A stretch of DNA of 64,000 bases from a virus, in IMG/VR virus record IMGVR_UViG_3300045988_111115, positions 1 to 64,000 of that record; one strand, 5' to 3'. Every line of letters begins with the position of its first letter. Within the stretch, counting starts at the first letter, position 1. Position numbers and translations under genes: made by a program. A model generated the notes under the pieces. That model did no database searches. It saw nothing but the letters and a program-made list of their open reading frames with translations, and was not told where the DNA came from. Shown in pieces: positions 2,752-20,312 of this stretch.

Positions 2752-3552
2752 ATGAACAAAAAGAACTTAACAAAGGCAGAGTTGAAAACAGTATTAGAGG
2801 GTTACGCAAATGTAGTTAAAGAAAAGTCTTTAAAAGACCGTATCAGCTACACTTTGAAGAAGTACAGCAATAGTACCAAGAAAACGGTACTTGACCTTAT
2901 ATCTGATATTGAAACTACGGTTGCACCACTACCTGTTGAAAATTCGGTAAAGAAGTTGCCTGCTAAAAAGACAAAGACTGAAAAAGCTACTGAACCTGAA
3001 GAAAAACCTGAGGAAAAGACAGCTAAGCCTGCACCTAAGAAGAATACTTCAAAAGGTAAGGCAAAACCAAAGCTATCTGCTCCGAAGAGTACTAAAGGTG
3101 CTACAGATAAGTCTGCTCCAATGGCGGCTATCTTCCCTGAGAAGATTGAAGATGAAAACATTGGCACGCTTGTAGCAGTACCTAACAAGTACCACACCAT
3201 AAAGGAACTTAGAGAAGCGATTGAAAGTGGTGAGAAAACTTTAGTAATCGGTGCGTACTTCCCTGTACCATTGATAAAGAAATATGGCTACTCAAACTTT
3301 AATGAAGCTAATGACCGAGTACCAAAGAAAGGTTTTGCTCACGACTTAGACCTACAGCAAGTTATCTACTGTTGTGAGGGTATAAATGCAGTATATGCTC
3401 TTTCGGACTATACAGAAGCAATGTTCGTGTATAGAGACCAAGAGTTAAAGCCTGAAAAAGTTAAAGACAGTACTACAGGTGATACAGTAGCTACACGCTT
3501 TGCCAACGGTTGTGAATTTGAACTTTATGAAGTCATTACCGAAGCAGAATAA
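2752..3552 (+). CDS. Hypothetical lysine-rich early protein (PAPKK-like basic repeats; possible DNA-binding)
   Basis: Leader motif at 2727-2742; ATG 2752. The ORF-track start at 2731 lies inside the RBS motif. Confidence 0.55.
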   Translation: MNKKNLTKAELKTVLEGYANVVKEKSLKDRISYTLKKYSNSTKKTVLDLISDIETTVAPLPVENSVKKLPAKKTKTEKATEPEEKPEEKTAKPAPKKNTSKGKAKPKLSAPKSTKGATDKSAPMAAIFPEKIEDENIGTLVAVPNKYHTIKELREAIESGEKTLVIGAYFPVPLIKKYGYSNFNEANDRVPKKGFAHDLDLQQVIYCCEGINAVYALSDYTEAMFVYRDQELKPEKVKDSTTGDTVATRFANGCEFELYEVITEAE

Positions 3553-3556
3553 GAGC

Positions 3557-3581
3557 CGAAACACCCCTTTTGGGGTGTCTG
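3557..3581 (+). terminator. Stem-loop aacacccc-tttt-ggggtgt, a terminator-like hairpin
   Basis: Perfect 7-8 bp GC-rich stem read directly; no strong U-run. Confidence 0.45.
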
Positions 3582-3661
3582 TATAAGCTGACTACTTATG
3601 CACTGATGATGGCAAGTCATTAGAACTACTAAAACAAAAGAGTGAGAAAGGAAGATACACT

Positions 3662-4138
3662 ATGACTAAAAAAACAGACACTAAAAGTCCGCTTGTAAGA
3701 CAACACATTGAAAAGGTTGTACTACAGTACAGAAACGGAAAAGTTAAGAACTATAACTTGTATAAGAAAGGTATTGGCTTTCCTGCTTTGACCTGCAAAG
3801 GTACAGTACTTCCATATTGGTACTTTAGTAACACTTTAGGTGCTAAGCTGAAAAGAGTACTTAATGGCATAACAAAAGTTACAGTAGGTAAGATTAATAC
3901 CTCTGTATCTGAATACTATACATTAATTTTTGCAGAGCTTAACAAACTACTTGAACAAGACAAGTGGTGGTATGATAGTTACAGTGAAAGAACAGCAAGA
4001 CTATGGGAAAGAGTAAGTAAGCTGTACAGAGAGGTACAAGAAGAGTACTTAGACGACTTGGAAATACCTGAATTGGTACAACACTTCTACAACCATATGC
4101 GACCTGCAAAACCCTTTTTTGATTGGTCGAAGAATTAA
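3662..4138 (+). CDS. Hypothetical early protein
   Basis: Leader motif 3638-3653; 158-aa ORF. Confidence 0.55.
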   Translation: MTKKTDTKSPLVRQHIEKVVLQYRNGKVKNYNLYKKGIGFPALTCKGTVLPYWYFSNTLGAKLKRVLNGITKVTVGKINTSVSEYYTLIFAELNKLLEQDKWWYDSYSERTARLWERVSKLYREVQEEYLDDLEIPELVQHFYNHMRPAKPFFDWSKN

Positions 4139-4236
4139 GTATTGCAACACAGGGTATAAGTACAGTACTTGTACCTTGTATGGAGTATTTAATACTTCAA
4201 GAAAAACATACACTAAGAGTGAGAAAGGAACATATT

Positions 4237-4662
4237 ATGAGTAAAGATGGAATTAAGCTAAGTAAAAAATACGGAGTAAACCCAACTATACCAATCTGTT
4301 TTTGGTGTGGTGAACACAAGAACGAAATAGCTTTATGCGGTCATATTGGTAACTACAGAAAAGGCGAAGACTTTGAAGCACCAAAGAACTGCATACTTGA
4401 CTATGAGCCTTGTGACAAGTGCAAAGAAACTTGGGATAAAGGCGTCGTATTGATAGAGGTAGACACCAAACCACAAGCGGAGGGTCAGCTCCCTATACAA
4501 GACCCTTACTATCCCACAGGCAGATACGTAGTAATGGAAAAGTCCTCTGCTGAAAAGACTTTTAAACCTGAAGTACTTGAAAAGGGACTACTACTTGTAC
4601 CTCAAGAGGTATTTGAACAGATAGTACCTCAAGAGGATAAAGACACCAAAGACAACGAATAG
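4237..4662 (+). CDS. Hypothetical Cys/His-rich (zinc-finger-like) early protein
   Basis: Leader motif 4215-4230; ATG 4237; CFWCGEHKNEIALCGH and CDKC clusters. Confidence 0.55.
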   Translation: MSKDGIKLSKKYGVNPTIPICFWCGEHKNEIALCGHIGNYRKGEDFEAPKNCILDYEPCDKCKETWDKGVVLIEVDTKPQAEGQLPIQDPYYPTGRYVVMEKSSAEKTFKPEVLEKGLLLVPQEVFEQIVPQEDKDTKDNE

Positions 4663-4857
4663 GTCGTATACTGTTAGAGTGTATTACTGAATAGGTAGTA
4701 CACTTTATAGAGTATAAGACTTTAGTAGTGGGTCTGTACTCAATCCGTTAAATATTTTGAGCAGGGTACTAACGACCTCACTCAGTTAGTACCTTGAACA
4801 AAGTACTTAACGGTACTTTGGAACTACTATACTTAAGAGTGAGAAAGGAGAAACACT

Positions 4858-5178
4858 ATGAAAATTATAAGACCTAAGAAATTGGTACAACCACCTGTAG
4901 AGGAGAAGCCAAAGCAAAGAGTGGTAGATGATGATAGCTACCCTGACTTATTAGAGAAAAAGGAATTAGTACTTGGAGATACTAATAAGTTAGTGTTTAG
5001 TGTAGCAAGGGGAGGAGAATATGGTCTCCCTATGATAGACATTAGGCACTACACCGATACAAGTAAGTATTCAGGTCCTACTAAGAAAGGTATTAGACTA
5101 CCACTTGAAATGCTCTATGACTTCTTGGAAATACTTGAGGAAATTGATACCGAGTGTGACGAAAATGGAATTGAGTGA
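4858..5178 (+). CDS. Hypothetical early protein
   Basis: Leader motif 4835-4850; 106-aa ORF. Confidence 0.55.
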   Translation: MKIIRPKKLVQPPVEEKPKQRVVDDDSYPDLLEKKELVLGDTNKLVFSVARGGEYGLPMIDIRHYTDTSKYSGPTKKGIRLPLEMLYDFLEILEEIDTECDENGIE

Positions 5179-5508
5179 TAAGGAATTTAATGAGTACCCT
5201 CTGACTGTAAAAGGTTGGAGGGTCTTATTTTTTTGTCCTGAGATACTATGGTATTTTAGGTCTACACACTGTACAGTAAGTAACTATGGTTGGTAATGAA
5301 TAGCTACAGTAGTGGTGAGAAGTACATAGGTTTTGGAGGCTTAACACTTGATATAATCAGTATCTTGGCATTATATATGATTTTCATAAAATTCTATAAA
5401 AACTATTGACAAGTAGTATCGTATGTGATACAGTCTATACAGTAAATGAGCGACAACACATTTACAGTCATAACACTACTAACTGAAAAATGAGAAAGTG
5501 AGAAACAA

Positions 5509-7392: not shown

Positions 7393-7818
7393 ATGAGGTT
7401 TGGAGTACAGTTAATGCAGTTGTTCAAACAAGCCCTTGAAATGAACAAACAGTGGGACGTAAATAAACACCCAATAATACTTATTAAGATAAGAGATACT
7501 ATATTGAGATATACAGGTTGTGAGATACGGTTCAAGTTTAACCCTGTAGACAATTTAGGAGTAGCAATAATGCTTGATGATATATTAGTAGAGGGTTGTA
7601 ATGAGACGTTTACAGAAGTGCTTGAGAGTGTACAAGGTAAGTACATAGGCGGACCACTTGACTTTAATATTACCTCTGCAATGGCAAATGATTTTAATGA
7701 AGCTATGTTGTTAAAGACAAGTGGTAGAGTAAATGCAAAACCTGTAATGACTATATGTTCAGATGAGGAGAAGCTAATAGTAGAAGATTTCATAGTGGAG
7801 GTAGAGTATGATGAATGA
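7393..7818 (+). CDS. Hypothetical protein
   Basis: ORF 7378..7818; ATG 7393 has GTGAGG RBS 9 nt upstream. Confidence 0.5.
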   Translation: MRFGVQLMQLFKQALEMNKQWDVNKHPIILIKIRDTILRYTGCEIRFKFNPVDNLGVAIMLDDILVEGCNETFTEVLESVQGKYIGGPLDFNITSAMANDFNEAMLLKTSGRVNAKPVMTICSDEEKLIVEDFIVEVEYDE

Positions 7819-8233
7819 AGAGTTTAAGAGTTGCTTTTACTGCAAGTACTATAAAGACGGTAAGTGCTTGAGACTGACCGAAGATATAGACTTTGACTAT
7901 GGTTTTGATGTACTGTTTGATAAGTATATCAGCGAAAGTGATATTGATATAAGTGCAGAGGAGCATTTAGTAAATGTACTGTCTATTGAAGAGGTGATAA
8001 AAGGTATTATGAATGTACTTGACCGTAACAGTGTAAGAGTAGGTATCAAGAAAAGAGTACAGATAAAAAAGGACCTTAGTGAGTTGTTGAATGGGTATTA
8101 TGAAAAGTATATACAGGGCAGTGCCGAGTTCGCAAGTGATACAGTACTGAATTTAAAGAATGAGAGAGGGTTAATAAACGAAGTAATGCAGTTAGAGGTC
8201 GAGCCGACTTTCTGCTGTAAATATTGGAGGTAG
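7808..8233 (+). CDS. Hypothetical protein (CxxC...C motif)
   Basis: 141-aa ORF with start/stop overlap to neighbours. Confidence 0.5.
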   Translation: MMNEEFKSCFYCKYYKDGKCLRLTEDIDFDYGFDVLFDKYISESDIDISAEEHLVNVLSIEEVIKGIMNVLDRNSVRVGIKKRVQIKKDLSELLNGYYEKYIQGSAEFASDTVLNLKNERGLINEVMQLEVEPTFCCKYWR

Positions 8234-15230: not shown

Positions 15231-15814
15231 AAGCTGAGATTAAGGTAAATGATAAAGTAATTGAAGTAGAACTAACTACAGAACAAATACAAGAGTTAGG
15301 ACTATTTGATGAGCCAAAGAAAAAGAAAACGGGTTTTGAGCCTACATCAATAGGCGGAGACTATTATATTATAACAACTCATAATGTTGAAAAGCATATT
15401 AATAGAGGGAATGGAAATGATATTCAGAATCGGGCTTCAGATAACTATTTCACAAGTTATGACCTTGCTTCTGATTTAAGAAGAGCCTTTCATCTTAATC
15501 TCCGAATGTTAAAGTGGCAAGCAGAAAATGATGAACCTGCATATGCTTATGACATAGAGGGCTTTGCTTTTGGCCGTTATATTATAACTTACTTCTATAA
15601 TGCTAATACCTATACAGGAGACTTGTGTCCTAAGTGTGTTAAGCCTGAATACAGTTCACCATTTATGGTGTACTTTAGTTCTGAAGAGAAAGCGTGGAAA
15701 GCTATAGAAGAGTTTAGAAGAGATTTAATATGGTATCACGAAGCATTTAAGTGTAGAAGAGATACTATAACCGAAAGTGATATAAGAGTGAAAAATGGAG
15801 GGCAATTATGTTGA
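15227..15814 (+). CDS. Hypothetical protein (CPKC motif)
   Basis: 195-aa ORF with ATGA overlap. Confidence 0.5.
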   Translation: MKAEIKVNDKVIEVELTTEQIQELGLFDEPKKKKTGFEPTSIGGDYYIITTHNVEKHINRGNGNDIQNRASDNYFTSYDLASDLRRAFHLNLRMLKWQAENDEPAYAYDIEGFAFGRYIITYFYNANTYTGDLCPKCVKPEYSSPFMVYFSSEEKAWKAIEEFRRDLIWYHEAFKCRRDTITESDIRVKNGGQLC

Positions 15815-16680
15815 GGAAGATTATACCCTTAGTCAATAACCTAAGTAAGCTTTATATCCTTAATGAAGAGGGTGTACCTTGTTTTGTACACTCTAAGGAA
15901 TACCCTAATGTTGCAACACAACCAATAGTGCCACGCTTCAATGGTTATACCTGTGTTGAAGACTATATGAAAGATGATATAAAATACATAGTACCTATGA
16001 CCGCAAAAGAGATTGAAAGCAAGGAAGAGCAGTTAGAAAAGTTGCAGAGTAAAGACTTCTATGTTGAAGAAAAGTTTGACGGTACAAGAGGTATAATGCA
16101 CTTTTATACTTGTGACCCAAAAACACTTAGAGAAAAGTACTACCCGAACTATAAGGAAGATGAAAAGCAGTATCTAAGTGTATGCCTGTTACAAGGAAGC
16201 TCGATTGTAGACGGTAAACGCAGAATTTATGACTACTTTCTGACACACTCTAAGTCTAAGGATAGAGTAGACTTTTTAAAGCAAGAGTATGGTATAGGAG
16301 GGTATACAGGTTATCCCATATCTTGTAGCTTTAACAGTAAAGGTTTTACTATAGATATGCCAAGTGACAAAGAGATAAATGGACGTTATAGTAAAAGCAT
16401 AACTTACACGTGGAAAACTATTGCCGAAGAGATACAACACCTGATAGATATAAAGCACTACTATGCACAAAAGGGTTATACAAGAGTGTTCAGTAGACGT
16501 GAAAGCAAAAAGACAGGTTGGCTCACTGAGAATACAGATAGTGTACCACAGCTAAGAGATTTAAACCGACCTGAACTTGCAGGTACTATAATTGATGGTG
16601 AGATGTTTATACCTAATCAACCTTTTAAAGCTGTAGCAAGTACCCTAAACTGTAAGTGGGTAACTAAACTGTTACAATAA
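15808..16680 (+). CDS. ATP-dependent DNA ligase, 5' exon or N-terminal fragment (motif I KFDGTRG, motif IV IIDGEM). The frame stops at the insertion boundary
   Basis: EEKFDGTRG is the KxDGxR adenylation motif and DGEMF is motif IV. Motifs V and VI are absent here and found in ORF 19216..20232. Confidence 0.8.
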   Translation: MLRKIIPLVNNLSKLYILNEEGVPCFVHSKEYPNVATQPIVPRFNGYTCVEDYMKDDIKYIVPMTAKEIESKEEQLEKLQSKDFYVEEKFDGTRGIMHFYTCDPKTLREKYYPNYKEDEKQYLSVCLLQGSSIVDGKRRIYDYFLTHSKSKDRVDFLKQEYGIGGYTGYPISCSFNSKGFTIDMPSDKEINGRYSKSITYTWKTIAEEIQHLIDIKHYYAQKGYTRVFSRRESKKTGWLTENTDSVPQLRDLNRPELAGTIIDGEMFIPNQPFKAVASTLNCKWVTKLLQ

Positions 16681-17200
16681 ATATAAACAAATCTGCACAA
16701 ATTTGTGCAGTGGTATAGATTTTATTAAGCAGAAAGCCCTTTGTATCGAGAAATCGGTGCAAACTCAGTGTTAATTGCTTTTAATCCCTAAAGCCTTACA
16801 CCTAAACAGTAATCCGAAAGGATAAACTGAACGGTACGAAAGTAGAAAAAACGTAAGGATGGCATATGGTGAAATAAAAGTACCTCAGTGTTAATGATAG
16901 GACAGATAATTTCTGACGTGACACATTAAAAACGGGTATCCTAAGTGCTTAAGCAATGGGTGTTTAGCAGCGAAAGCCCTAAGTCTTTTTATAAGATATG
17001 GGACACGTTCAACGACTATCTCCTTGAGGGAGAGTAAAACCACAAGCTAATGGTGGAAGAAAAATACTGCCCCACACTACTATGTGGGTGAAGATATAGT
17101 CTACGCTTATGTGAAAGCATAAGAGGTCTGTCGGTAACGATAAGACTGCTATAAGGTTGCGACTTATAGTGAATGAGATAAATATATACATATTTAATTT
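16681..17200 (+). ncRNA. Group I intron catalytic core (P4: aattgctttt 16773-84 with aagcaat 16951-57; R gttcaacgactat 17007-19; P8 hairpin 17071-88; S aagatatagtct 17091-102)
   Basis: Matches R consensus GUUCA.GACUA and S consensus AAGAUAUAGUCY; P7 gacta:tagtc; 18-nt perfect palindrome 16693-16710. Confidence 0.65.
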
Positions 17201-17261
17201 ATTTATATAAATCTATTGACAACAATATAAAATTATGATACCATAGATATATAAAAATAAT

Positions 17262-17897
17262 ATGGTGGTGAATTTTATGGAATTGTTAAGCATAGGTAAA
17301 TTTGCTAAAACTGTAGGAGTAACTACGACAACATTAAGAAGAATGCATCAAAGTGGCGAGTTAATTCCTGCACATATTTCAAATGGTGGAACAAGGTATT
17401 ATTCTACGGAACAATTAAAATTATTCCAATCAAGTAATAATGAAAGAATAGTTATTGGTTATTGTAGAGTAAGTACTCCATCACAAAAAGACGATTTAGA
17501 AACACAAGTACAAAATGTTAAATCATATATGTATGCTAAGGGATATAAATTTGACATTATAAAAGACATTGGTTCGGGTATAAATTATAAAAAGAAAGGT
17601 TTAAAAGAACTCATTAATAGGATAGAAAATAATGAAGTTTCTAAAGTTGTAATTTTATATAAAGATAGGTTGATTCGATTTGGATTTGAATTAATTGAAT
17701 ATTTGTGTGAAATTAATAACGTAGAAATAGAAGTTATAGACAATTCGGAATGTAGTAAAGAGAAAGAATTAACAGATGATTTAATTCAAATTATTACAGT
17801 TTTTGCGAATAGATTGTATGGACAACGTTCAAAGAAAACAAAACGACTTATTAATGAGGTGAGAAACAATGCTGATAACAAAGAAAATCAGACTTAA
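17262..17897 (+). CDS. tnpA: IS607-family TnpA: serine recombinase with an N-terminal MerR-like HTH
   Basis: LSIGKFAKTVGVTTTTLRR HTH; IGYCRVSTPSQKDD catalytic Ser motif; alternative start 17277; upstream TTGACA at 17215. Confidence 0.8.
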   Translation: MVVNFMELLSIGKFAKTVGVTTTTLRRMHQSGELIPAHISNGGTRYYSTEQLKLFQSSNNERIVIGYCRVSTPSQKDDLETQVQNVKSYMYAKGYKFDIIKDIGSGINYKKKGLKELINRIENNEVSKVVILYKDRLIRFGFELIEYLCEINNVEIEVIDNSECSKEKELTDDLIQIITVFANRLYGQRSKKTKRLINEVRNNADNKENQT

Positions 17898-19047
17898 ACC
17901 GACAACTGAACAAGAAATATTATTTCGTAAAAGTGCTGGTGTATCGAGATGGGCATATAATTTCTTTTTAGGTGAGAATGAACGAATATACAGAGAGTAT
18001 ATTGACAATGGAAAAGTTGGTAAGAAAAGCATTAGCGAAGGTGATGTTAGGAAATACATAAATAATATATTAAAACCAACTACTCATTCTTGGCTCAAAG
18101 AAGTTGGAAGTAATGTAATGAAACAAGGTGTTAAAGATGCCAGTCTTGCATTGCAAAGATATTTTAAAGGCTTGTCTGGAAAGCCCAAATTTAAGTCCAA
18201 ACATAAAGACAGACCGAGTTTTTATGTCAATTATGAAAGTCTTTCAAGAAAACAAGGTGGTTTTCAAGGAGAAAAAATAGGCTTTGTAAAAACATCGGAG
18301 GCACTTCCTAAACTAAATAAAAATGAAAAATATTCAAATCCAAGAATAACGTTTGACGGAAAATATTGGTATCTATCTGTTGGCTATGAAGTGCAAGAAA
18401 GCACAGTGGAATTAACAGACGAAAGTTTAGGAATAGATTTAGGAGTTAAAGATTTAGCAATTTGTTCAAACGGAAAGGTTTATAAAAATATAAACAAAAC
18501 TCAAAGAGTTAAAAAGTTAGAGAAGAAACTAAAACGTGAACAGCGAAAATTATCAAGGAAGATTGAAAATAATATTCAATCATATAAATCAAATAGAAAC
18601 CCTATATACAAAAGACCTTTGAAAGAATGTCAAAACATTCAAAAACAAAATCGTCTAATACGAAATATACATAGAAAACTTGCAAATATTCGTCAAAACC
18701 ATTTACATCAAACAACGACAGAGATAGTGAAAACCAAACCATCTCGAATAGTTATGGAAAGTTTAAATGTAAGTGGAATGATGAAAAATAAACATTTATC
18801 AAAAGCAATACAACAACAAAAATTTTATGAATTCAAAAGACAAATTGAATATAAGTCAAAACTAAATGGGATTGAATTCATTCAAGTTGATAAGTTTTAT
18901 CCAAGTAGTAAAACTTGTAGTTGTTGTGGAAATATCAAGAAAGATTTAAAACTTTCGGACAGAATGTATAAATGTGATGTTTGTGGTCTGGTTATTGACC
19001 GAGATTACAATGCAAGTATAAATTTAGCAAATTATGAAGTTATATAA
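17869..19047 (+). CDS. tnpB: TnpB (OrfB) RNA-guided nuclease; RuvC-I/II/III acidic residues and C-terminal zinc finger present
   Basis: GIDLGVKD (D), VMESLN (E), CSCCG...CDVCGLVIDRDYNASINLA (D plus Zn finger); 29-nt overlap with tnpA. Confidence 0.85.
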   Translation: MLITKKIRLKPTTEQEILFRKSAGVSRWAYNFFLGENERIYREYIDNGKVGKKSISEGDVRKYINNILKPTTHSWLKEVGSNVMKQGVKDASLALQRYFKGLSGKPKFKSKHKDRPSFYVNYESLSRKQGGFQGEKIGFVKTSEALPKLNKNEKYSNPRITFDGKYWYLSVGYEVQESTVELTDESLGIDLGVKDLAICSNGKVYKNINKTQRVKKLEKKLKREQRKLSRKIENNIQSYKSNRNPIYKRPLKECQNIQKQNRLIRNIHRKLANIRQNHLHQTTTEIVKTKPSRIVMESLNVSGMMKNKHLSKAIQQQKFYEFKRQIEYKSKLNGIEFIQVDKFYPSSKTCSCCGNIKKDLKLSDRMYKCDVCGLVIDRDYNASINLANYEVI

Positions 19048-19234
19048 ATTCACTTAAAAGAATTATATAACTATGTACCTATCGCTATTAGGGAATTTAC
19101 GTCTATGGAGTGTCATAACAAATGAAAGTAGCTACGGCAAAATCAGACACGTTGAAGTAGAAAGTCTTAATCGTGAGATAAGGCACAGTATAGATTTATA
19201 TAAATTAGTTGTAATTTGTATATGTTTATCATAG
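19048..19234 (+). ncRNA. IStron 3' segment: candidate omega-RNA scaffold and intron 3' end / 3' splice site
   Basis: Non-coding 187 nt after the tnpB stop; stem-loop-prone sequence (cacgttgaag...cttaatcgtg); abuts the ligase exon 2. Confidence 0.4.
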
Positions 19235-20232
19235 CGGATAAAGCTATAACAAGACAGCTTGAATTAGGTGGTGTAGTATTCCACGCTTTTGATATACTTT
19301 TCTTTAAAGGTATTGACTTACGTAAAATGCCTTTGGAAAGACGTAAAGTGTATCTGCATATAGTATGTGATACTTTAAATTCACCTTTTGTGAAAGAGGT
19401 AAAGTACTATGATGAAGACGGAATAGTAGTACCCCTTTTAAGTATGTCTGATAGGGATAGAATATTGAATAACCCTGAACTATATCCGAATTTAGCTGAG
19501 GATATAAAGCACTATATGTCAAATGCACTGTATTATGAGGAAGATGAGAGTAATGACGGTGAGCCTTTACCTTTTAGAATTTCCAAAGCTTCTTACTATG
19601 AGTATATAGTCTTTACAGGAGGAGAGGGAGTAGTAGTAAAGCCTAAGACAGGTAAGTACTATCACAAAAGAGGTAGAGAGTATGAGAAGATAAAGAAGTT
19701 CCTAACAAGAGAATGTATTATCTGTGGTTTTACCCCACCTACACAAGCGTATAAGGGTAAGTTCCCTGATGATAGTTGGTCCTATTGGATAGACAATGAG
19801 ACAGGAGAAAAGCAAGACCCTGAAGAGTGTGCTAATATGTCAGCTAAGAAGTTACAAAAGACTTGCACACCTGTTACAAAGTACTACTTTGAAAATTGGG
19901 TAGGTAATGTAGAGTATGGAGTGCTAATCTCCGAAGATGAGATTAAGAAGTTACCTAAGAACAAAAATCACGATATTAGGACAGTCGAAGTATTGACAGA
20001 CTATAATGACAGAAAGTATCTAAAAGTACTTGTTGTAGGTGAATGTAGTGGTTTTGATGATGATGAGAGAGCGTGGTTTACTGAACATAAAGATGAAGTA
20101 ATCGGTCAAGTAATCGAAGTCAAAGCTAATGAGATATTCAGAGATACAGGTAAACTTAGACACCCTCGCTATTTGAGACTAAGACCTGATAAGTCGGCTG
20201 AACAGTGTACCTTTAAAGAGCATATACTTTAA
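19235..20232 (+). CDS. ATP-dependent DNA ligase, 3' exon or C-terminal fragment (AFDIL...PLERR, motif V EGVVVK, OB-fold region); exact exon start uncertain
   Basis: HAFDILFFKGIDLRKMPLERRKVYL and GGEGVVVKPKTGKYY; the open frame begins after the stop at 19201; the track ORF starts at TTG 19216. Confidence 0.7.
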
Positions 20233-20241
20233 ATTTTAAGC

Positions 20242-20257
20242 AAAGCTATTTACAAAT
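20242..20257 (+). promoter_or_regulatory. 16-mer AAAGCTATTTACAAAT (copy 1), identical to 31685-31700
   Basis: Exact 16-nt identity at two sites, upstream of the terminase and of the tape-measure gene. Confidence 0.45.
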
Positions 20258-20277
20258 TCGGTAAATATGTATATAAT

Positions 20278-20312
20278 AGTCCTGTAATAAATTCATTGCA
20301 GGACTATTTTTT
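20278..20312 (+). terminator. Hairpin agtcctg...caggact plus T6 (terminator after the ligase)
   Basis: 7-bp stem, 14-nt loop, U-run. Confidence 0.45.

Follow-up and report, generated by a model that had tools for sequence, protein, structure and literature searches.

Matched occupied and empty alleles of a phage DNA ligase gene point to a recently mobile, apparently intact group B IStron

The DNA ligase gene of an uncultured tailed phage (IMG/VR record IMGVR_UViG_3300045988_111115; its positions 1 to 64,000, a stretch of 64,000 nucleotides (nt), are called the window here) is divided between two open reading frames (ORFs), which raises the question of whether the DNA between them has destroyed the gene or can leave its transcript and restore one protein. 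The ORF at 15808-16680 encodes 290 amino acids (aa) with KFDGTRG and DGEM, and the ORF at 19216-20232 encodes 338 aa with AFDIL, PLERR, and EGVVVK; both lie in the same frame and match the Pfam family DNA_ligase_A_M, in agreement with the reading of a first-pass annotation made from the letters alone. The two halves are annotated apart, as 'hypothetical protein' and 'ATP-dependent DNA ligase'. Analysis of the DNA that separates them revealed what is very probably an intact IStron of group B (the IS607 family of insertion sequences, IS). The first-pass annotation had proposed such a combination of a group I intron with IS607-type TnpA and TnpB inside the ligase gene, and the proposal is borne out by a precise insertion, a covarying fold, both proteins, a RAGATH-18 RNA, and about 73% identity to the known element CbISt3.

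The boundaries of the insert were taken from an empty-site allele together with independent copies elsewhere, which fixes the exact ends of the element without modelling. L003, a 50.5-kb phage contig with 99.1-99.6% identity to window positions 5797-30231 (about 22 kb compared), lacks exactly bases 16661-19237 and reads AAGTGGG/ATAAAGC at the junction (the slash marks the insertion point), that is AAGTGGG followed by ATAAAGCTATAACAAGACAG. The insert in the ATP-dependent DNA ligase gene is 2,577 nt long (3 x 859), ends on the right with CATAGCGG, and is accompanied by no target-site duplication; the last base of the 5' exon is G and the first base of the intron is U. Because GG is present at both junctions, the ends are ambiguous by at most 2 nt. 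The first-pass annotation was right that both halves share a frame and that the insert length is a multiple of three. It had placed the start of the insert at the stop codon of the upstream ORF, and the empty allele moves this start to 16661, 20 nt before that stop; likewise, the motif content of ORF 19216-20232 is that of the rest of the ligase, while exon 2 itself begins at 19238.

Comparison with relatives of the element leads to the same ends. The left flanks of independent copies are unrelated up to TGGG wherever they can be read, similarity starts at TAAC(T/A)AAACTG and stops at TC(A/G)TA(G/T)CGG, and the ends are the same wherever both are readable. All ten relatives compared at the right end finish with TCRTAKCGG, after which similarity ceases; the published scaffold end for homologous elements is UCGG, and the published ends of group B IStrons are TGGG/ and CGG/ (10.1101/2023.11.20.567912; PMC13565253). 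In the window, TGGG (16657-16660, + strand) consists of the Trp284 codon and the G of Asp285, and is assigned as target, transposon-adjacent motif (TAM), and 5' strand of the ribozyme helix P1. The CGG at 19235-19237 (+) is assigned as terminal (omega) G and 3' splice site, GG recombination core, and last bases of the omega-RNA scaffold. The insert has a GC content of 30.2% against 36.3% for the whole window, so that its AT-richness, noted in the first-pass annotation, holds overall; the excess comes from the ORF part (28.4%) and not from the first 530 nt that hold the ribozyme (37.0%), as expected of structured RNA.

Precise removal of the insert recreates the ligase gene that sibling phages carry uninterrupted. 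Exon 1 (15808-16660, +) comprises 284 codons and the first base of Asp285, with KFDGTRG (motif I) and DGEM; exon 2 (19238-20232, +) runs from the last two bases of Asp285 to the stop codon, with AFDIL, EGVVVK, and the C-terminal OB-fold region. The predicted join of 15808-16660 and 19238-20232 yields a 615-aa protein, and a search with this fused protein retrieved the uninterrupted 615-aa ligase of L003 (P0001), which is identical at 612 of 615 residues. A further 16 homologues (45-68% identical) are gap-free across the junction block STLNCKW/DKAI.RQ, which lies between DGEM and FHAFDIL. The motif numbers IV and V given to DGEM and EGVVVK in the first-pass annotation should presumably be III and IV, in what we take to be the nucleotidyltransferase numbering of ligases. 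The split and unsplit alleles differ by seven synonymous and three non-synonymous changes, an excess that adds a little for constraint on the ligase, and hence for splicing; this is weak support, given how recently the element arrived and that each change may have arisen in either lineage. All ten differences lie in exon 2, from 205 nt past the junction, with none in exon 1 or in the approximately 1.5 kb upstream (compared with L003 10001-11848).

The whole unit (16661-19237, +) missing from L003 is found in full at other sites. Ten large ENA contigs (L066-L075, 55-442 kb) carry the same element, 99.8-100% identical across all 2,577 nt, at locus positions 2793-5369, with flanks reading CCTTGGG/TAAC and GCGG/ARACC and with no ORF across the junction. 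This site has a PhageMin_Tail gene about 385 nt upstream and a DUF6514 gene downstream, and its region resembles a prophage or conjugative island. The exact TnpB protein occurs on at least 114 contigs, the longest of 3.04 Mb. The large contigs with identical copies are probably bacterial, and the lineage of L066-L075 is probably the donor and a pointer to the host. A viral contig, IMGVR_UViG_3300029114_000038 (covered by L028 and L005), holds a copy 97-98% identical within an Amidase_2 endolysin gene; TGGG/ and GCGG/ mark its two ends here as well, and the exons of the gene rejoin in frame into one ORF (TDHW/GRNC). Its flanks show no DNA similarity to the window, so this copy lies in a different phage or a different region. 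The same contig also has a second IS607-like tnpA/tnpB unit, about 68% identical and about 10 kb away.

Identical or near-identical full-length elements thus occupy three different sites (ligase, endolysin, and an apparently non-coding one), and the element is mobile as a single unit delimited by TGGG/ and CGG/. It has moved recently, to judge from the copies of 99.8-100% identity at another site and the 98% copy in the endolysin gene. More distant relatives (66-83% identical) were found in 17 species genomes, mostly Clostridia, and about 16 viral contigs, the best species-genome matches being 71-83% identical. Both coding insertions fall at a Trp codon followed by a codon beginning with G (W/D in the ligase, W/G in the endolysin), TGG and G together making the TAM TGGG. 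Since the motif is encoded by the Trp codon and the next G, it cannot be removed by synonymous change; more distant ligase homologues, in which A, P, or Y replaces this W (P0002-P0004 and P0008), would lack it. In one Bacillota metagenome-assembled genome (L012, 5-1423, - strand), at least nine tRNA genes are arrayed directly beside an IStron copy.

A group I core had been proposed for the first 520 nt or so of the insert, and the alignment of relatives gives a covariation-backed fold for its first 510 nt (16661-17170, +). RNAalifold on 18 relatives yielded 104 pairs, 56 of them with compensatory changes, and the addition of P1, P7, and P8 by hand brought the structure to 119 pairs. Standard pairs form in 96.7% of the alignment cells of this structure, against 34-43% in controls where the 3' partners were slid by 1-3 columns; 61 pairs are changed on both sides (7-21 in the controls) and the covariation score is 0.348 (about 0.05). 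In 500 shuffles the observed value was never reached on four of five measures, and the count of further pair types was reached by 293. The window copy has no non-standard pair in the structure.

The helices follow the group I order: P1 (16658-61 with 16736-39), P2 (16740-63), P3 (16766-72 with 17063-69), P4 (16776-79 with 16966-69), P5 (16783-88 with 16958-64, enclosing an extension of about 155 nt at 16794-16949), P6 (16970-17008), P7 (17014-18 with 17097-101), P7.1 (17019-33), P7.2 (17040-56), P8 (17071-88), P9 (17106-23), P9.1 (17126-46), and P9.2 (17148-70). The guanosine-binding helix P7 is invariant in 15 of 15 sequences, and the terminal G is G19237. P7.1 and P7.2, the hallmark of subgroup IA2, are both present, consistent with the literature, in which all IStron introns are typed IA2, the relatives of this one among them (PMC4227781). 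Among the core elements picked out in the first-pass annotation, P (16773-84), R (17007-19), P8 (17071-88), and S (17091-102) stand. Its Q (aagcaat, 16951-57) does not: the corresponding P/Q pairing (16774-80 with 16951-57) was rejected, as the Q segment is not conserved in the element of phage c-st and the alignment favours other, covarying partners for P, at 16966-69 (P4) and 16958-64 (P5). A one-mismatch copy of the S element, GAAGATATAGACT at 7880-7892 (+), was set aside as a chance match inside ORF 7808-8233 with no covariance-model support.

Covariance models from Rfam, to which the first-pass annotation had looked for a check, support one RNA of the element above its threshold and the other just below. 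The group I model found no match at its gathering threshold in the whole window, nor at E<=10 in the 2.9 kb of 16500-19400. When 16640-17260 (621 nt) was scanned alone, Intron_gpI (RF00028) scored 47.0 bits (E 8e-11, span 16886-17123) against a gathering score of 50. That score was reached in none of 14 related loci scanned, CbISt3 of c-st among them, so the shortfall is due to the Rfam model and not to this copy. The model puts P3-P5 in the wrong place because of the long P5 extension, and its alignment of these helices (16934-16970) was rejected in favour of the P3, P4, and P5 supported by covariation. RAGATH-18, by comparison, scored 73.5 bits (gathering score 44.9) at 19102-19163 (+).

The last exon base at the 5' splice site is G16660, so the canonical U.G pair with U in that position is absent, and a U.G pair (U16661-G16736) lies one position inside the intron. 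A U.G shifted into the intron behind a G-ending exon is a published oddity of all group B IStrons. We considered an alternative with the 5' site after U16657 and the 3' site after G19234, which keeps the frame (CKS-DKA), and rejected it on the empty allele and the homologues, which read CKWDKA; a 3' site after G19234 is also disfavoured by c-st, which has no G at the corresponding position.

Between the ribozyme and the distant 3' splice site, the IS genes are enclosed by a long AU-rich inverted-repeat stem, with its 5' arm at 17177-17216 (+) and its 3' arm at 19188-19230 (+). RNAduplex pairs 17176-17249 with 19163-19231 at -39.5 kcal/mol, and the long uninterrupted part of this duplex is the stem of about 40 bp. 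Such a stem has been described for group B IStrons. Its 3' arm shares bases with the 3' part of the omega-RNA scaffold, which puts the two folds in competition.

The two genes carried by the insert appear intact. The 211-aa ORF of tnpA (17262-17897, +) encodes an IS607-type serine recombinase with an N-terminal MerR helix-turn-helix (HTH), as the first-pass annotation had it: Pfam gives Resolvase (9e-20) and MerR (4e-9), the PDB matches are catalytic domains of IS607-family TnpA (6dgc and 6dgb), and the catalytic Ser is kept (S71 of the ORF, in CRVSTPSQ). The true start is likely the ATG at 17277, given a Shine-Dalgarno-like GGTGGTG stretch and the alignment with OrfA of c-st. Ahead of tnpA, at 17216-17244 (+), lies a promoter-like site (TTGACA, 17 nt, TACCAT with TG), recognised by consensus match alone; its TTGACA is also present in the copies of c-st and L010. 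The 392-aa TnpB (17869-19047, +) matches the Pfam families HTH_OrfB_IS605, OrfB_IS605, and Cas12f1-like_TNB. Its best PDB match is 8iaz (3e-78), which we take to be TnpB of ISFba1 since the ISFba1 paper (PMC11061315) cites 8IAZ. Reading the 8iaz alignment against D194/E290/D371 of that paper places the RuvC triad at D190/E297/D377, and the four cysteines of the CxxC...CxxC zinc finger are C350, C353, C369, and C372, so the full acidic triad and zinc finger noted at first reading are confirmed, with agreement from the Pfam profile search.

Downstream of tnpB, the scaffold of an omega-RNA (reRNA) is predicted at 19069-19237 (+) from the RAGATH-18 match and a fold on ten relatives. The fold has 47 pairs, of which 97% are paired (28-50% when slid), with 20 compensatory changes. 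It comprises a closing stem (19069-77 with 19219-27), a nexus stem-loop (19078-92), the RAGATH-18 motif, a stem-loop (19164-84), and a pseudoknot in which the nexus loop (19083-88) pairs with 19231-36; this pseudoknot covaries at two positions and overlaps the 3' splice site. The layout, with 55 nt after the tnpB stop, a 62-nt RAGATH-18 motif, and 74 nt up to the CGG that ends at 19237, resembles the published one, in which RAGATH-18 is the core of the IS607 TnpB guide RNA and a short 5' segment and a 3' segment of 60-64 nt precede the guide (PMC11061315). A blastn-short search for the RAGATH region in relatives found none, and Rfam was used instead. A 53-aa ORF lies wholly on the scaffold (19073-19234, +) and is called as a gene in several metagenome contigs (for example L067 5205-5366); it is almost certainly not a gene.

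On the published omega-RNA architecture, the 20-nt guide would be the first 20 nt of exon 2, ATAAAGCTATAACAAGACAG (19238-19257, +). The empty allele L003 contains TGGG followed by this sequence as an exact match, a natural perfect target. The occupied site reads GCGG in place of the TAM TGGG and should escape self-cleavage by TnpB because it differs at -3, the most discriminating TAM position in the CboIStron study.

Of the named elements, CbISt3 (= ISCbt4), from Clostridium botulinum phage c-st, is the nearest relative; it is listed as a 2,559-nt IA2/IS607 group B IStron in a phage (Tourasse et al. 2014, PMC4227781). It shares the order of ribozyme, tnpA, tnpB, and RAGATH-18 RNA, a similar size (2,559 against 2,577 nt), the phage residence, and the TGGG/ and CGG/ ends, with 72-74% nucleotide identity over 16657-19164, 69% for TnpB, and 78% for TnpA (OrfA). 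It differs in site (between CST134 and a YomI-like tail gene, whereas the element here is in the ligase gene), and in the last 74 nt of the right end, which have diverged and include a 15-nt indel. The c-st TnpA (CST133, L001 3091-3690) reads CRVNTPSQ, with Asn at the position of the catalytic Ser that the present element keeps, and the c-st copy may be non-autonomous.

The sequence features of CboIStron and CseIStron (C. botulinum and C. senegalense; 10.1101/2023.11.20.567912, PMC13521648) are all present here. These elements have an IS607 TnpA with a GG core and a TGGG TAM that serves both TnpA and TnpB and whose pairing lets the 5' splice site be recognised, and their omega-RNA scaffold ends in CGG and forms a pseudoknot over the 3' splice site (10.1101/2023.11.20.567912; PMC13521648). 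They are plasmid-borne or chromosomal and their activities have been measured, whereas the phage element is known from its sequence. BcISt1 of the Bacillus cereus group, also group B, splices after G instead of U, as predicted here, and likewise has U as first intron base, a long AU-rich inverted-repeat stem, and an IS607-type ORF A, but its ORF A is usually degenerate, while both ORFs are intact here. The locus displays the full set of group B sequence features: a GG-ending site (TGGG, AGGG, or GAGG class), the G/U junction, no duplication, CGG, an IA2 ribozyme, the stem, TnpA, and TnpB. The first-pass annotation had likened the element to both CdISt1 and the C. botulinum type, and the second likeness, to the C. 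botulinum/BcISt1 type, is the one that holds. CdISt1 of Clostridioides difficile (group A) likewise combines a group IA2 intron with an IS that encodes TnpB, and it is spliced out of host mRNAs. Its type, however, has a tyrosine (HUH) TnpA of the IS200/IS605 kind, inserts at TTGAT, finishes with TCAG on the 3' side, and carries subterminal palindromes and the canonical U at the 5' splice site; the insert has instead a serine recombinase, TGGG, and CGG.

Outside the IStrons, ISFba1 (PMC11061315) matches in its TnpB and in a similar RNA layout (5' flank, RAGATH-18, 3' flank of 60-74 nt, guide), but it is a plain IS607 element without an intron and its TAM is AGGAG, compared with the TGGG predicted here. 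In contrast to phage introns with homing endonucleases (T4 td and nrdB, Twort orf142), the nuclease here would be the RNA-guided TnpB with the flanking exon as guide, and the element has its own transposase and is not tied to one site, having been seen at three.

The best explanation of the locus is a recent transposition of an intact, autonomous IStron into the phage ligase gene. TnpA, as a serine recombinase with a GG core, would have inserted the element at TGGG, and its precise excision would leave the donor joint AAGTGGGATAAAG. In the ligase pre-mRNA, the 5' ribozyme would fold, with exon GGG and the first intron U pairing with GCCC (16736-39) as P1, and the AU-rich stem would loop out the genes so that the 3' end, far away in sequence, reaches the core. 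The exons, spliced after G16660 and G19237, would then read CTGTAAGTGGG/ATAAAGCTATAAC, giving NCKW-DKAITRQ and the full 615-aa ligase. Alternatively, the last 170 nt of the transcript's element could fold as omega-RNA scaffold, be bound by TnpB and cut off, the 20 nt of exon 2 that follow serving as guide. Both the pseudoknot and bound TnpB would hide the 3' splice site, so that splicing and guide-RNA formation would be mutually exclusive fates of one transcript. The TnpB nuclease would cut uninterrupted ligase alleles bearing TGGG and the guide sequence, in the excised donor site or in a co-infecting sibling phage free of the element, and recombinational repair would copy the element back. 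We consider this full mechanism, productive splicing included, likely, if with less assurance than the identity of the element; the intact fold and the two in-frame insertions in phage genes support splicing indirectly.

Several points weigh against this account. The Rfam group I score is 3 bits below the curated threshold, with P3-P5 misaligned. P1 has only 4 bp, three of them invariant and thus beyond the reach of covariation, and two of its bases are also contested by a local hairpin (16660-64 with 16671-75) that shows some covariation. Splicing, TnpB cleavage, and homing are inferred from the homologous elements BcISt1 and CboIStron, and the phage may not require its own ligase, which the first-pass annotation called essential. 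The interrupted allele is in the minority: in the ligase cluster at 90% identity, 3 contigs hold the split fragments, compared with about 14 for uninterrupted forms. The 100% identity to copies elsewhere marks a very recent insertion, after which even an inactivated ligase would have had no time to decay, so that the intact exons are weak evidence.

The same observations could be accommodated by a dead-end insertion, that is, an IStron by descent whose splicing is of no use, the ligase being knocked out while the phage relies on the host enzyme or the variant is transient. Selection has had little time to act on an insertion of this age, the interrupted allele is rare, splicing at this locus is a prediction, and both TnpB and the omega-RNA pseudoknot have been shown in published work to repress it in homologous elements. 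Yet the 119 ribozyme pairs, P7, the terminal G, the inverted-repeat stem, and the TGGG/P1 pairing are all intact, a 98% copy sits in frame in a phage endolysin gene as well, homologous group B IStrons splice in experiments, and the interrupted allele recurs on three contigs of different sources, all of which makes such a dead end improbable.

A nested origin by chance, in which a group I intron resident in the phage ligase was later invaded by a separate IS607 copy, has in its favour that the IS genes are more AT-rich than the ribozyme and that viral contigs commonly hold group I introns that lack an ORF and have a related core. Such introns, with no IS part, were seen in many IMG/VR loci (L025, L029, L031, L033, L041, L045, L047, L053, L057, L058, and others), their P3-P5 and P6-P9 regions being 73-88% identical to the insert ribozyme, with two or three per locus in L047, L057, and L058; they may be relatives of the intron's ancestor or IStrons that have lost the IS. 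The empty allele, however, lacks ribozyme and IS together, no intron-only intermediate was found, similarity between copies starts at the first base of the ribozyme and stops at CGG, and the identical full unit, ribozyme included, sits at unrelated sites, one apparently non-coding; this origin is very unlikely. Hardly more credible is an assembly artefact in which an abundant metagenome repeat was stitched into the phage contig. Copies of 100% identity are indeed abundant in gut metagenomes, as the TnpB count illustrates, and such repeats can break or confuse assemblies, but the flanks continue the same gene in the same orientation, no target base is lost or gained, the ends are the canonical TGGG/CGG, and each ligase fragment is recorded on 3 contigs, from JGI/IMG, Logan, and ENA.

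Beyond the mechanism of a recently inserted, spliced IStron, we tentatively raise the possibility, less probable than its opposite, that the element acts as an RNA-guided device for intron homing or marker exclusion between co-infecting phages. TnpB with its exon-2 guide would cut sibling ligase genes, for which a perfect match to TGGG and the 20 nt exists, and so convert or exclude the siblings, the TAM being locked by the invariant Trp codon and the next G. If so, the 100% identity to probably bacterial copies would record a very recent jump into a phage. Transposon homing into co-infecting phages is listed as a concept in a 2026 review (PMC13565253), and the literature searched yielded no demonstration of such homing.

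The surroundings of the gene are those of a tailed-phage genome, in which all ORFs of at least 200 aa but one are on the + strand and the terminase, portal, capsid, and sheath genes come after the ligase. Immediately past the ligase stop, and just before the terminase gene, lies a strong promoter-like site (TTTACA, 17 nt, TATAAT; 20249-20308, +) that overlaps a terminator-like hairpin with a 14-bp stem followed by a T-run. A phage-database search returned distant relatives only, the best portal match being Bacillus phage BCD7 (46% aa identity) and the ligase match 29%. Searches of the window found no tRNA genes, no internal repeats of at least 40 nt, and no further IStron copies or other group I introns.

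Knowledge of the class to which this element belongs dates from 2000-2014, experiments of 2023-2026 have dissected it, and both its presence in phages and its mechanism are published: TAM, GG core, CGG end, pseudoknot, and the antagonism between splicing and guide-RNA formation were established for CboIStron and extended in 2026. What is new here is the host gene, a ligase; the element brings no new principle. Routine gene callers and the Rfam group I model miss such elements, as seen in a ligase annotated as two fragments and in a spurious 53-aa ORF. Matched occupied and empty phage genomes and a likely donor copy, 100% identical, are now on record, which offers a clean natural system for a class so far studied mainly in heterologous E. 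coli assays; the pair could be used to test TnpB-driven homing and the effect on phage fitness of the trade-off between splicing and guide RNA. Taken together, the copies indicate that TnpA-driven transposition into phage coding genes is evidently ongoing in gut-type metagenomes.

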